Source: a virus. Taken from it: a stretch of DNA of 64,000 nt. This document shows, one piece after another, positions 32,868-45,192 of the stretch. The stretch lies in IMG/VR virus record IMGVR_UViG_3300037423_001503, one strand, 5' to 3'. The notes below the pieces were generated by a model. That model had not been told where the DNA came from, ran no database searches, and saw only the letters and a list, made by a program, of their open reading frames with translations. Position numbers and translations under genes: made by a program. Each line of letters begins with the position of its first letter. The first letter of the stretch is position 1.

Positions 32868-33143
32868 AAAAGATCTCACACATCTAGTCTACTGCGTGGT
32901 ACGCTACCGCGCATGGACGAACCTGATGCCCTCTTCCCAGCGCCGCCCGCGGGCTGGCAGTATGGTGTCGTCATGGCCGACGGGACCGTTTGGGGCTGTG
33001 GGACGAGCGAGCACGGGCGCTGGCTTCAGCGCCGACGCCTCAGCTACTCCAACGTCTCTGGCCCGTGTCTGTTGCCAGGCTCGGCGGATCTGAATCAGCG
33101 GCACCGTCGCCTCGCCCTCGGCTCTTGACAGCCGAACGCGGAC

Positions 33144-33172
33144 TTGACTCGGAGTGGCCGCGCTGCTAGCCT
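33144..33172 (+). promoter_or_regulatory. SigA-type promoter, leaderless
   Basis: TTGACT-N17-TAGCCT with TG extension, N8 to GTG 33181. Confidence 0.6.
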
Positions 33173-33180
33173 TCTCGGCC

Positions 33181-36376: not shown

Positions 36377-37159
36377 ATGGGTCGAGTTGAGCGCGACCGC
36401 CTTGGCGCGCGCATGAAGGAGTACGAGGCGCAGTGCAGGTTCGTGCTGCCACGCCGCACCTACACGATCCTGCGTCTCGACGGGCGCGCGTTCCACTCCT
36501 GGACCAAGGGTCTCAATCGTCCCTACGACGAAACCATGCTGACCGCGATGGCTGCGACGTCGAAGAAGCTTTGCTCGGAGATCTCGGGCGCTGTGTTCGC
36601 GTACACGCAGAGCGACGAGATCAGCATCCTCGTTCAGGACTTCGCATCGCCGGATACGCAGCCCTGGTTTGGCGGCGTGGTGCAGAAGCTGGCTAGCGTC
36701 TCAGCGTCGGTCGCTACGGCCGAGTTCAACTCCTACTGGGAACGCCCGCCGGCCTATTTCGACGCGCGCTGCTTCACCATCGAACAGGCCGTTGAGGTTG
36801 CCAACTACTTCGTGTGGCGGCAGAAGGACGCGCGCCGCAACGCCATCAGCATGATCGCCGAGCAGCACTGGTCGGCGAACGAGCTTCACGGACGCCCAAC
36901 TTCGGCGCGCCGCGAGATGCTCGAAGCTCAAGGCCTGGACCTTGATCGAGAGGACCAGCGCTTCATGATGGGCCAGGTCGTGTACCCGGTTACGGTTTTC
37001 GAGTCGGTCGTCTACACCGACAAGCGCACCGGTGAGGAGTGCCGAACGCCTATGGTCGAACGACGCGTGCTCGATACGATCCCAGCGCCTGAGTTCCGCG
37101 CCGACCAGGGCTGGCTTGTCGAGCAGATCCACAACATTCCCGACGCTGTGGCTGCGTAA
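36377..37159 (+). CDS. thg1: tRNA(His) guanylyltransferase / Thg1-like 3'-5' polymerase
   Basis: RMKEYE, RLDGRAFH, YTQSDEIS, FDAR, YFVWRQKDA.RN. Confidence 0.92.
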   Translation: MGRVERDRLGARMKEYEAQCRFVLPRRTYTILRLDGRAFHSWTKGLNRPYDETMLTAMAATSKKLCSEISGAVFAYTQSDEISILVQDFASPDTQPWFGGVVQKLASVSASVATAEFNSYWERPPAYFDARCFTIEQAVEVANYFVWRQKDARRNAISMIAEQHWSANELHGRPTSARREMLEAQGLDLDREDQRFMMGQVVYPVTVFESVVYTDKRTGEECRTPMVERRVLDTIPAPEFRADQGWLVEQIHNIPDAVAA

Positions 37160-39824: not shown

Positions 39825-40151
39825 ATGCGTGAACGAGTCCTCCATCTGACGCGCGATGACTTCAAGTGGGACTATTACCGCGCTAGCGGTAATGGCGGCC
39901 AGAACCGCAACAAGCGCGACACCGCCGTACGGTGCACACATGCGCCCTCTGGTGCGGTCGGCAACGCAGCCGACGAGCGCACACAGGGCAAGAACCGTAA
40001 GCTCGCCTTCAAGCGCTGCACCGACGACCCGAAGTTCCGTCGTTGGCTGGCCATCGAGCACGCCAGAACCCTAGTTGGCCGCGATCGATGGGTCGACCAG
40101 CAGATGCGGCCCGAGAATCTCTTGATCGAGTACGGCCCATTCGATCGTTAG
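39825..40151 (+). CDS. RF-1 domain (GGQ) peptidyl-tRNA hydrolase, ArfB/PrfH-like
   Basis: YRASGNGGQNRNKRDTAVRCTH.PSG...ERTQGKNRKLAFKR. Confidence 0.9.
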   Translation: MRERVLHLTRDDFKWDYYRASGNGGQNRNKRDTAVRCTHAPSGAVGNAADERTQGKNRKLAFKRCTDDPKFRRWLAIEHARTLVGRDRWVDQQMRPENLLIEYGPFDR

Positions 40152-41406: not shown

Positions 41407-42135
41407 TCAGAATCCCATCCTGATTCGATAGACAAGGTGGTTGATTTTACCCATGTCGGGTTCATCGGGAAGCTTGGAGTAGGCGGCTGCGTTGTCGAGA
41501 GTGATCAACATGGCCTCGGCGATGGACTCGACCTTATCGAGATCCTTCTCGGCAACGCCCTTGAGCCACTCAACCTGAAGCGGCTGTAGACGCACCAAGA
41601 CCTCGCCGTGCTTGAGGGCGTGGACGCCGGCCATGAGCAGTCGTAGCGTGTGAAGCTTGAACTTGGTGCGCTTGTGGTGACTCGCGCCGCGAGAACCACC
41701 AGTTCCCTCACGCGCCTTACGAAGCTGCGAAACCGCGTAGCCGCCGTAGGTGTGAACGATGCGCTTCGAGAGGAAGAGCCCGCGGCTATTGATGAGTTGG
41801 CCGCCGGCCGAGTAGGCGTCAATCATCTGGTCATCGGACCACAGCATCTCTAGCGCTGTTGGGTTCGCCTTAGCGGCAAGGCGAGCGAAGTGCGCTAGCT
41901 CGTAGACGACGACGTCTGCGTCTTCGGCGATCGAGTTGAGTTCGAGCGCGTCCTTAGCGCCGCCCAGGGAGAGAACCCTGCGAAGCCCAGCCACGTAGAC
42001 GCCTCGAAAATCGTGATCCGAGTCAGGGTTGTCGGTGCCGTAGGCACGGCTGCCGGTGCGCGAGACGAGCACGAGTTCGCCGTCTGCGGCCTCTGCGTGC
42101 GGCTCGATGAGATCAAAGAAGTCCTCAGTGGTCAT
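41407..42135 (-). CDS. Pol-beta superfamily nucleotidyltransferase (RlaP/YcgL-like)
   Basis: GSRAYGTDNPDSDHDFRGVY...YELAHFARLAAKANPTALEMLWS...YGGYA. Confidence 0.85.
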   Translation of the reverse strand: MTTEDFFDLIEPHAEAADGELVLVSRTGSRAYGTDNPDSDHDFRGVYVAGLRRVLSLGGAKDALELNSIAEDADVVVYELAHFARLAAKANPTALEMLWSDDQMIDAYSAGGQLINSRGLFLSKRIVHTYGGYAVSQLRKAREGTGGSRGASHHKRTKFKLHTLRLLMAGVHALKHGEVLVRLQPLQVEWLKGVAEKDLDKVESIAEAMLITLDNAAAYSKLPDEPDMGKINHLVYRIRMGF

Positions 42136-43073: not shown

Positions 43074-44423
43074 TCAGTCCTTGTACTTGTCGACAACGCC
43101 GCTACCGGCCATGGCGACGCCAATCGGGCGGAGCGAGTGCTTGACTTCGACGTAGTCGGCGTGGGCGGCCAGCACTTCAGGCAATCGCTTGTAGGCCTCG
43201 GGAGCCTCGTCAGCGTCGCCGCCGCGAAGTTCGATGCCCTGTCGGCGCAGGCGCTTCTGGACAGCCTTCCAGTCGACTCGGCCCTCGCGCTCCTGAACCC
43301 ACGTCTTGGACACGTCACCATGCATACACTCGGGGCAGATCGTGAACGACGGCTCGCCGCGTCCCTGTGTGTGCCCGCAGTTGTTACACGTGACGCGCTT
43401 GCGCTGTCGACCCTTGGCCTCTGTGCGCGACATCACACGTCCCGCGCCATGCGGGGCCGACCAGATGGCCTCCTGGCCGGCGGCCCAAGCGAGCAGCCTC
43501 TTACCGGTCGTTACGAGTCCACCATCGCCGAAGCCCTCGATGATGACCGCATTCTCGCCCATCGAGCCGCCAACGAAGCCCTGCTGTCCCGGGTAGAGTG
43601 GCGTCGAGCCCTTGCGGACCACCCAACAATCCACACCATTCACGTTTTCCAACCACGAGAAGTTGTGGTGGTTGTGAACTTCGTGCACAACGGCCGGCGA
43701 TCCCAGGATCTCCAGGACCTTGTCGACCACGACGTCGCGGCCCGCGTACGCGTAGTCGCCTGCGAGGTTCATGGCCTCGATGTAGGTGTAGCCGAGCGGA
43801 GAATCCTTGTGCAGCAGCACGGGCGGCGAGTGCATCTCACCGCCGTCGGCGTGGTCGGCGAACTCCTTGCCTTGTGCGAGCGCGAGGAAGCCGGAAGCGA
43901 TCTTGTGGCCGAAGCCACGCGAGCCGAAGTGGACGCCGATCCAGATGCGATCGGTGCCTTCTTCGGCGAAGAGATCGACGTAGTGGTTGCCGGAGCCGAC
44001 GGTGCCTAGCTGAGCCCGAGCGGTGCCGATGAGATCTCGAACGCCACGCATCGGAGCTTCACGATTGATGCGATCGAAGATCTCGTGGTCGACGGGCTCG
44101 TTGTTCGGACGCCCCATGCCGAAGCTGATGCGGCGCGAGATCTCGTCCATGATCTTCGGTAGATCGGCGCGGATATCGCCGAGGAAGAGGTTTGTCGAGA
44201 CGGCCTTGTTGCCGCAGCCAATGTCGTAGCCCACAGAGGACGGCGAGACGTAGTCCTCATAGGCGATGACACCTCCGATGGGAGCAGAGTAGCCGAGGTG
44301 GTGATCTGCGCAGAGAACGCCAGCGACGGCGTCACCCGCGACCATGCAGGTCTCCATCTGGCGAACCGCGCCCTCATCGGGAGACATCCCATCGGGCGTG
44401 AAGATGGTTAGATTGTCAGACAT
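43074..44423 (-). CDS. rtcB: RtcB RNA ligase with a Zn-ribbon insert
   Basis: DHHLGY, VGYDIGCG, GSGNHY, HFGSRG, NHHN, RKG, HGAGR, DEAPEAYK. Confidence 0.95.
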   Translation of the reverse strand: MSDNLTIFTPDGMSPDEGAVRQMETCMVAGDAVAGVLCADHHLGYSAPIGGVIAYEDYVSPSSVGYDIGCGNKAVSTNLFLGDIRADLPKIMDEISRRISFGMGRPNNEPVDHEIFDRINREAPMRGVRDLIGTARAQLGTVGSGNHYVDLFAEEGTDRIWIGVHFGSRGFGHKIASGFLALAQGKEFADHADGGEMHSPPVLLHKDSPLGYTYIEAMNLAGDYAYAGRDVVVDKVLEILGSPAVVHEVHNHHNFSWLENVNGVDCWVVRKGSTPLYPGQQGFVGGSMGENAVIIEGFGDGGLVTTGKRLLAWAAGQEAIWSAPHGAGRVMSRTEAKGRQRKRVTCNNCGHTQGRGEPSFTICPECMHGDVSKTWVQEREGRVDWKAVQKRLRRQGIELRGGDADEAPEAYKRLPEVLAAHADYVEVKHSLRPIGVAMAGSGVVDKYKD

Positions 44424-44460: not shown

Positions 44461-44633
44461 GTGCCGGTTCAGGGAGAACTCGTTGTGCGCCCGTACGCTC
44501 TTCCCCGCATTACCGCGCCTACGACCAGCGTAACGATGCCTTGGCCAGGCAGGATGCGCGTTGTGGGAGTGGCTCGTGTCCCACGGCCTCCGCGGCGGCC
44601 ATTGTGGGCTCGACGAGTTCTCTGCACCGCCAC
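44461..44633 (-). ncRNA. Candidate ~170-nt structured RNA upstream of rtcB
   Basis: Long closing helix incl. GAGAACTCGT/ACGAGTTCTC enclosing several hairpins; no convincing ORF. Confidence 0.5.
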
Positions 44634-44676
44634 TATCCGACTCGTGATCAGCGAGTCAGCCAAACTTTGAAGATTG

Positions 44677-44801
44677 TTCCGTCGGAGGGGATCGAACCCT
44701 CTACCCTAGCAGCCGCTAGCAGGCTGATCGTCGGGTTATCGGCCCACTACTCGACACCCGGGTTCGCGACCCGCAGACGCCTTTCGCTTCCGATCGACGG
44801 C
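44677..44801 (-). ncRNA. Candidate ~125-nt tRNA-like RNA (acceptor stem + T-arm, expanded interior)
   Basis: (G)CCGTCG...CGACGG(A)ACAA ends; T-arm GAGGG-TTCGATC-CCCTC; predicted TSS coincides with the 5' end. Confidence 0.6.
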
Positions 44802-44807
44802 CTGAGA

Positions 44808-44837
44808 AGCTTAGCAGCTACTCGTCGTCTTCGTCAA
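44808..44837 (-). promoter_or_regulatory. SigA-type promoter for the tRNA-like RNA / rtcB unit
   Basis: TTGACG-N18-TAAGCT with TG extension; +1 at about 44801. Confidence 0.65.
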
Positions 44838-45192
44838 CCGGAAGCGAGGCGATGCGCTCAACATAGCGTTCCTGCTCGGCGATGAGGCCGTCTCGGAACC
44901 CGACCAAGGCGTCGATCATCGTGTTGACCTTGTAGAGGTCGTTGGCGCGTGCGTCAGCGTCGGCAATATCGAAGTCGAACGAGACGCTGCGCGTGCAGTC
45001 GGCGATCTGGAGCACCATGTGTGGTCGGGCGTTCCAGCGTTCGAGCTTCTCGTCCTCGGCGTTCTTGCCGGCCTTCCAGCGAGAGGTGTCTTCGATTTCG
45101 GCGACGATCGCGCCTGTCGAGTGGTGGCCGGGCAGGTTGAGCATTGCGCGCCCGCCGTGGTAGCGGCGGCGCTGTCGTGGGCGTCGAGCCAT
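44818..45192 (-). CDS. Hypothetical protein
   Basis: Extended -10 TGcTACTCT-N6-ATG; LQIADCTRSV motif. Confidence 0.65.
   Translation of the reverse strand: MARRPRQRRRYHGGRAMLNLPGHHSTGAIVAEIEDTSRWKAGKNAEDEKLERWNARPHMVLQIADCTRSVSFDFDIADADARANDLYKVNTMIDALVGFRDGLIAEQERYVERIASLPVDEDDE

Follow-up and report, generated by a model that had tools for sequence, protein, structure and literature searches.

The rtcB locus and its leader

The window, the 64,000-nt stretch of DNA analyzed here, belongs to a 79-kb IMG/VR record (G000) that is 56% complete. The phage that carries the element described below is of a soil type. An rtcB gene lies on the minus strand, and genes encoding Thg1-like, RF-1-domain, and RlaP proteins are found less than 8 kb from it.

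43074-44423, minus strand: rtcB, encoding a 449-aa 3'-phosphate/5'-hydroxyl RNA ligase (Pfam RtcB, E = 1.3e-57)
41407-42135, minus strand: RlaP (Pfam, E = 1e-30)
39825-40151, plus strand: RF-1/GGQ-domain protein (Pfam, E = 9e-17)
36377-37159, plus strand: Thg1-like protein (Pfam, E = 3e-29)

By these domain matches, the three genes and rtcB constitute an RNA-repair and translation-rescue set. RtcB itself has thousands of homologs. The leader of rtcB is 378 nt long, and its GC contents at the three codon positions are 0.59, 0.62, and 0.66, compared with 0.66, 0.45, and 0.79 in rtcB. The lack of codon-position periodicity indicates that the leader is noncoding, and a coding reading of it was rejected on this ground. 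The features in and around the leader are listed in order of transcription.

44784-44847, minus strand: 16-bp inverted repeat with two G:U pairs, 44847-44832 pairing with 44799-44784; the arms span the -35 and +3 to +18
44808-44837, minus strand: promoter-like motif TTGACG-N18-TAAGCT, with TGC before the -10, predicting a +1 near 44801
44677-44801, minus strand: tRNA look-alike of 124 nt plus A73, with an acceptor (6 Watson-Crick bp plus G:A), a D-like arm, a stub, two more hairpins, and a T-arm
44477-44771, minus strand: lineage-specific segment of about 295 to 305 nt, covering the stub hairpin through the 3' acceptor strand and also a second structured region (from alignments and BLAST)
44710-44726, minus strand: anticodon-like hairpin CAGCC-TGCTAGC-GGCTG, with CUA at 34 to 36 and G at 33 (read from the sequence)
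44685-44701, minus strand: perfect T-arm GAGGG-TTCGATC-CCCTC (read from the sequence)
44461-44660, minus strand: hairpin (44659-44637) and, after it, a domain of about 170 nt whose ends pair (fold z = -1.28; inverted repeat I3)

The promoter-like motif had been proposed from the letters of the DNA, and it stands out against its background, with a single match in the window and none in 100 shuffles (0/100). Its -35 hexamer, TTGACG, sits inside the end of the upstream open reading frame (ORF). The motif is kept as TTGACG...TGCTAGGCT in the closest relatives, L001 and L002, in which RtcB is 85% identical. A close copy is present at window positions 33140 to 33175 on the plus strand, where TTGACT, a 17-nt spacer, and TAGCCT after TGC are followed by TCTCGGCCGTG, and a -10 of the form TGCTAGACT precedes the leaders of L080 (at about 2103 to 2116) and L171 (at about 1205 to 1215). 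The recurring promoter-like motif can be written as TTGACN-N17-TGCTANNCT, after which come TCTC and GCCGT-like bases. When at most two mismatches are allowed, GCTGCTARRCTTCT occurs five times in the window against an expectation of 0.9.

The motif at 44808-44837 was not called in a generic sigma-70 scan, because its -10 fits only three of the six consensus positions. In that scan, the stretch from the element to rtcB was free of terminator-like sites, and one such site is located upstream of the preceding ORF (45236-45218); from this arrangement, the element can reasonably be presumed to form the head of the rtcB transcript. The 16-bp inverted repeat brackets the promoter motif and is mostly retained in L001 and L002. 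It could serve as an operator or as a hairpin in read-through RNA. In a transcript reading through from the upstream ORF, this 16-bp helix would be expected to outcompete the 6-bp acceptor stem for the 5' strand.

A tRNA outer frame around an enlarged interior

Element bases are numbered as 44802 minus the coordinate, which makes base 1 the G at 44801. All of the helices listed in the earlier sequence-only reading are present when the minus strand is read, and the tRNA outer frame that it claimed is real and comes directly after the promoter-like motif. Bases 1 to 7 (GCCGTCG, 44801-44795) pair with bases 118 to 124 (CGACGGA, 44684-44678) through six Watson-Crick pairs plus the mismatch G1:A72. 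The 3' acceptor strand lies directly 3' of the T-arm and is followed by A73 and then by CAA; on reading the sequence, CCA is absent at the 3' end of the element. Four helices stand between the 5' acceptor strand and the T-arm: the D-like arm CGGA/TCTG (44792-44789 and 44777-44774; 4 bp including one G:U, with an 11-nt loop holding A14 and GG), the stub helix CGGGT/ACCCG (44773-44759; 5 bp with a 5-nt loop), the helix GTCG/CGAC (44755-44752 and 44733-44730), and the hairpin with a 5-bp stem and 7-nt loop. Together they carry the interior about 50 bases beyond tRNA length. The same reading had noted that U8 and U33 are absent, which agrees with the sequence; base 8 is A, and the base preceding the T-stem, at the position of Levitt partner 48, is A and not C.

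The T-arm with its adjoining acceptor strand, counting Watson-Crick pairs only, was found in none of 200 dinucleotide shuffles of the 64-kb window. Given a T-arm, 9% of shuffles contain a complement of the 3' hexamer in the 190 nt upstream, and the figure is about 16% when CCGTCG is taken at its actual frequency in the genome. The 3' acceptor strand also has a partial internal partner, TGTCG at 44756-44752, and a near-complete 79-nt unit running from there to 44678 (44756-44678) lies wholly within the lineage-specific segment. The minimum-energy fold of the element keeps the acceptor stem and the T-arm. Its folding energy is unremarkable (the element has z = -0.65 and the complete leader z = -0.18), and when the whole leader is folded, its minimum-energy structures are built from other helices.

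These whole-leader folds, together with the alternative pairings I1, I2, and I4, are what one would point to if the likeness to a tRNA had arisen by chance within an unrelated leader RNA, whose translation or stability effects on rtcB would be exerted through a different fold, for which the 16-bp hairpin across the promoter and the long-range helices in the second domain are candidates. The rtcB leaders of relatives, which range from 0 to about 470 nt and mostly have no T-arms, are also compatible with such an explanation. We nevertheless consider it quite unlikely, given the absence of the strict T-arm and acceptor combination from all 200 shuffles and the habitual position of tRNA genes beside rtcB in this clade. 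Because tRNA genes are the usual neighbors of rtcB, a tRNA origin is far likelier than coincidence, and the element very probably derives from a tRNA gene.

The claim that the element is not an ordinary tRNA held up in both ARAGORN and Rfam, neither of which matched it. ARAGORN at default settings called no tRNA or tmRNA in the window, and Rfam at gathering thresholds returned nothing relevant for the element. The models for tRNA (RF00005), tRNA-Sec (RF01852), YrlA (RF02553), and tmRNA gave no Rfam match at E <= 10 to either 601 nt or 139 nt of sequence, and RF00005 and RF01852 gave none at E <= 1 across the 79-kb record. A canonical tRNA was taken to have a covariance-model score of at least 29 bits, a T-arm with a 5-bp stem, a 7-nt TTCRANY loop, and an adjoining 3' acceptor strand pairing over 7 bp, and an anticodon arm (5-bp stem, 7-nt loop, U33, and R37) at the canonical distance from the D and T arms within a total length of 70 to 95 nt. 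The element has the T-arm so defined, joined to an acceptor of six Watson-Crick pairs plus G1:A72. Its length is 124 nt, and the sole hairpin with a 5-bp stem and 7-nt loop comes after about 47 extra bases and has G33. From its sequence, the element appears to be without a working codon-reading arm. A tmRNA was also considered and rejected: there was no default call from ARAGORN or Rfam, the acceptor has C3:G70 and not G3:U70, and the calls made at a 70% threshold were spurious.

When introns were allowed or thresholds were lowered, ARAGORN produced only badly paired or spurious solutions. Artificial internal deletions (several thousand trials) led to 17 ARAGORN calls, all of them with D-arms of 2 to 3 bp. 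At the default threshold, these included a tRNA(CUA) after removal of nucleotides 8 to 54 (47 nt), the only way in which the hairpin was accepted as an anticodon arm, and a tRNA-Arg(GCG) after removal of about 35 nt from nucleotide 43. Such calls raise the idea of a precursor to a decoding tRNA from which the insert would be excised and the halves joined, possibly by RtcB, to leave the anticodon CUA or GCG, and it fits with this idea that the 26 tRNAs of the complete related genome G002 include none for Arg. It is very unlikely, however. The 17 calls came from several thousand deletions and have poor D-arms, the loop carries G33 (C33 in the Arg solution), and no splicing endonuclease or bulge-helix-bulge motif was seen. 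Furthermore, the long ORFs make normal reading frames when TAG is taken as a stop, and the sister phages manage without the element.

A link to YrlA RNAs and Ro60 had been suggested as well, and it fell away with the lack of an Rfam YrlA match and of any TROVE or DUF2828 gene. Ro60-like genes (TROVE, PF05731) were found neither in G000 (79 kb, 56% complete) nor in the complete 140-kb G002; DUF2828 (PF11443) was likewise found in neither, which is a weak result in that the PF11443 control matched nowhere. A Pfam scan of 28 ORFs in the window gave no DUF7873 match. The motif GNCGAAN0-1G was not seen on reading the element sequence, and the layout of the element follows the normal, unpermuted order of a tRNA. 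The tRNA mimicry of YrlA RNAs and their proximity to rsr and rtcB in some bacteria and phages (PMC4201824) are what would commend a YrlA-type Y RNA partnering a Ro60-like protein. That identity is nevertheless largely refuted and is highly improbable given the missing RF02553 match (E <= 10), Ro gene, and binding motif.

An accessory segment and the tRNA neighborhood of rtcB

A near-identical 139.6-kb contig shows one difference from the window phage in 6,350 bases. The two closest relatives are represented by L001 and L002 and by the complete genome G002 (139.9 kb; 139,911 bp); they are collinear with the window phage at 70 to 92% nucleotide identity, and alignments and BLAST show that they are without window positions 44771 to 44477. 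What is missing in L001 and L002 comprises the stub, the anticodon-like arm, the T-arm, the 3' acceptor strand, and the second structured region, which lies between the look-alike and rtcB within the lineage-specific segment. What is kept comprises the upstream ORF, the promoter-like motif, element bases 1 to 30, and the ~50 bases immediately preceding the rtcB start; the D-stem and GG are weakened in their copy of the first 30 bases. The sequence-only reading had staked its case on conservation of the acceptor and T-arm in related phages, and on this point it fails, as L001 and L002 have neither the T-arm nor the 3' acceptor strand. Since the sister phages do without it, the element is dispensable, an optional extra.

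The edges of the segment share a CTG microhomology and nothing more. At the junction, L001 has ten bases that form a copy, diverged by transitions, of the ten bases ending the segment. With such edges, the change may have been a loss in the relatives or a gain in the window phage. The GC content of the segment (0.627) is like that of the genome (0.608), which indicates that it is not recent foreign junk. Homologs of the leader or segment were found neither in a phage database (searched in distant mode) nor in five related virus records, nor in about 200 loci or the phage's own genome, and 401 Actinomycetota genomes gave matches at noise level only. Pairwise alignments of the leader with those of L080, L087, L089, L171, and L172 scored no better than shuffles. 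A search with the upstream ORF returned the two known relatives only, and none of 12 contigs around RtcB homologs of 66 to 100% identity proved to be an intermediate relative with the segment.

The exact T-arm and acceptor pattern had zero matches in IMG/VR. In species-representative genomes, the T-arm/acceptor 20-mer had six matches, four of them in ordinary GC-rich sequence and one in an odd tRNA-like element, and none of the five matching sequences that were read (of the six) was a normal tRNA gene. A 78-nt tRNA-like element was seen at L015:7438-7515 on the minus strand of a Bdellovibrionota metagenome-assembled genome (JBBAUR010000009.1), where it directly follows tRNA-Tyr within a Leu-Thr-Tyr cluster. 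Its acceptor pair is GCCGTCG/CGACGGC, with the same 5' strand as the window element, and a T-loop is present. It receives no ARAGORN call and no more than 19.6 bits from the tRNA-Sec model.

The 3' half of the window element, from the anticodon-like arm to the acceptor end, is its most tRNA-like part, as would be expected if a phage attachment site were marked by the captured 3' fragment of a tRNA. This origin is barely conceivable, however, and an attP reading was rejected: no tyrosine integrase was found in G000 or G002, and none of the T-arm/acceptor 20-mer matches read in the species-representative genomes (five of six) lies in a normal tRNA gene.

The neighborhood of rtcB in other phages is rich in tRNA genes. 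Among 133 distinct viral loci, 23 have tRNAs within the 1.2- to 1.5-kb flanks of rtcB, and 10 have a same-strand tRNA ending at most 300 nt upstream of it. In relatives with RtcB identities of 43 to 60%, rtcB is very often inside or at the edge of a tRNA array, and in the cultured Tunturiibacter phage Tunturi_5, tRNAs flank rtcB on both sides. A metagenome contig carries a 92-nt tRNA-Ile(UAU) call with a long unpaired variable region (L052:19-110, plus strand) upstream of tRNA-Lys and rtcB. The known tRNAs of the window phage lie at the far end of its record, about 30 kb off. G002 has 26 tRNA genes according to ARAGORN, with none for Arg, Asp, His, or Trp, at 47-208, 125356-126547, 133269-133735, and 139286-139886, and a CCA-adding-type nucleotidyltransferase (PolyA_pol match at 137548-137964). 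Two pieces of debris also lie in its array: an isolated T-arm stub closed by a 4-bp helix (L183:917-951) and the 5' half of a truncated tRNA, which passes directly into the next tRNA gene (L183:1013-1049). The presence of these fragments indicates that tRNA pieces arise in this lineage.

It is a serious possibility, if a somewhat doubtful one, that the ~300-nt segment is itself debris of a tRNA-array rearrangement, containing a decayed tRNA gene whose pairing with the leader is fortuitous and whose RNA has no role. The sister phages lack the segment, and the 5' half and T-arm stub of the G002 array are debris of this sort. A complement to the acceptor strand is expected by chance in 9 to 16% of cases, and TGTCG (44756-44752) gives the 3' strand a partial partner inside the segment. 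The interior shows no signatures of tRNA tertiary contacts, and no covariance model matches it. In addition, a fragment whose ends happen to pair is more apt to be flagged than one whose ends do not. The element may, then, be only a relic. On the other side, all five T-stem pairs, the canonical T-loop, and six acceptor pairs are intact, the 5' strand begins at the predicted +1, and a segment with the GC content of its genome (0.627) is not recent foreign junk. Other lineages, moreover, retain intact and differently sequenced look-alikes beside rtcB.

Two such cases were identified. In the loci L080 and L081 (RtcB 74% identical), a 61-nt look-alike without an anticodon arm is located at 2223-2284 on the plus strand of each, within a 378-nt gene-free leader upstream of rtcB. 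It has a 7-bp acceptor stem with G3:U70, a 4-bp hairpin with a GG loop, a 4-bp tetraloop stub, a T-arm, and A73, and the T-arm pattern of L080 had zero matches in IMG/VR. A 113-aa antisense ORF predicted by the gene caller overlies this unit. In IMGVR_UViG_3300036894_000168 (RtcB 46% identical), a 211-nt RNA at L245:2367-2578 on the plus strand begins three bases past the rtcB stop. Seven Watson-Crick pairs close it (GCCACTT/AAGTGGC, with A73), four T-arm-like hairpins lie inside, and its fold has a z of -2.36; it has no homolog among 279 loci. ARAGORN calls none of the window, L080/L081, and L245 look-alikes, and no sequence similarity to the window element was found in the L080/L081 or L245 units. 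As far as their sequences can tell, these units are parallels, and not evident homologs, of the window element. Most other relatives, at 66 to 73% identity, have short rtcB leaders or none. L089 (1100-1470, plus strand; RtcB 68% identical) has a different gene-free unit of about 330 nt upstream of rtcB with two hairpin-plus-T-run sites at its bounds and with no T-arm or Rfam match.

A putative look-alike of the T5 RNA1 kind

We favor the reading, to which we assign a probability of roughly 45%, that the element is a tRNA-derived, non-decoding look-alike that is cotranscribed with rtcB and is of the same kind as T5 RNA1. Both end helices and the T-loop are intact, and the 5' strand starts at the predicted +1 of a promoter motif that lies directly upstream. 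The outer frame exceeds chance expectation for the window, and the leader is noncoding. Intact and unrelated look-alikes are found beside rtcB in L080/L081 and L245, T5 offers a precedent in the form of an annotated stable species, and this phage group invests heavily in tRNA handling (26 tRNAs, a CCA-adding enzyme, and Thg1-like, RlaP, and RF-1-domain proteins). Against these points, relatives with an 85% identical RtcB are without the T-arm, the 3' strand, and all that lies beyond, and the segment has no homolog. The tRNA models do not match, G1:A72 is a mismatch, and U8, U33, and the C48 Levitt partner are missing. The folding energy is ordinary, the acceptor pairing carries a chance expectation of 9 to 16% given the T-arm, and the 5' strand doubles as an arm of the conserved 16-bp inverted repeat. 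The selection effect mentioned above, by which fragments with chance-paired ends are more readily flagged, also weighs against a functional look-alike.

If the element is functional, the tRNA parts that it retains would be those read by the end-processing machinery, namely, the stacked acceptor stem and T-arm, A73, and the D-like arm, with three small hairpins replacing the codon-reading arm. The look-alike would reside in the rtcB leader on ~300 nt of accessory sequence, and its transcription would start from a conserved phage promoter motif and meet no terminator ahead of rtcB. Its folded 5' end might protect the rtcB transcript. Alternatively or additionally, enzymes of the RNase P/Z type and the CCA-adding enzyme might release and finish a small stable RNA. 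We infer that the likeliest roles would be those of a 5'-end stabilizer, of a processing mark for RNase P/Z and the CCA enzyme, or of both.

A broader hypothesis is that, in this clade, phage rtcB genes are accompanied time and again by dedicated non-decoding look-alikes that work with the RNA-repair kit (RtcB, Thg1-like protein, RlaP, and the CCA-adding enzyme). The window element, the 61-nt unit of L080/L081, and the 211-nt RNA of L245 with its four T-arms would be examples, and we regard the hypothesis as unlikely. If it were true, the look-alikes could, for example, be cut and resealed while serving as decoys or sentinels for host anticodon nucleases, and, because the window look-alike heads the rtcB mRNA, it would make rtcB expression respond to such damage. 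T5 has annotated oversized tRNA-like RNAs, and the tRNA region of T4 gives rise to small RNAs, none of them with a known function. A look-alike joined to the start of the rtcB message, along with unrelated ones beside rtcB in other phages, would tie this class of RNA to RNA repair, and the same link would extend to the conflict between phage and host over tRNA cleavage. The window phage and its 85% relatives provide a natural pair with and without the element. As an orphan without conservation, the element is therefore of value as a lead and not as a result.

Several known systems bear comparison with the element. YrlA RNAs are non-decoding tRNA mimics with T and D arms (Chen et al. [quoted passage not shown] Their layout is reversed, with a capped "acceptor" between the T and D arms and a Ro60-binding stem formed from the RNA ends (PMC4201824). 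In contrast, neither the permuted layout nor the Ro-binding stem nor an adjacent rsr is present at the window element. Phage tRNA pseudogenes and fragments are closer to hand, as truncated pieces occur in this lineage and rtcB usually neighbors tRNA genes. Unlike tRNA fragments, however, the window element has both end helices intact, is about 50 nt too long, and begins at the predicted +1.

RNAC and RNAD of phage T4 are matured like tRNAs. These two small RNAs (species 1 and 2) are made from the T4 tRNA region, and their role is unknown (PMC3014915). They belong to another phage group, have no sequence relation to the window element, and are not attached to rtcB. T5 RNA1 (NC_005859, 30501-30644; 144 nt), annotated as "tRNA-like stable RNA with unknown functions," folds into an acceptor, a D-arm, an enlarged multihairpin interior, and a T-arm. 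It differs from the window element in scoring 24 bits with RF00005, with which the window element has no match, in lying in the T5 tRNA region and not in an mRNA leader, and in being annotated as a stable RNA; the two have no sequence similarity. Both, however, are oversized and set the outer frame of a tRNA around an enlarged interior of several hairpins, and just as T5 RNA1 is followed by the stable RNAs RNAI and RNAIII, the window element precedes further structured RNA.
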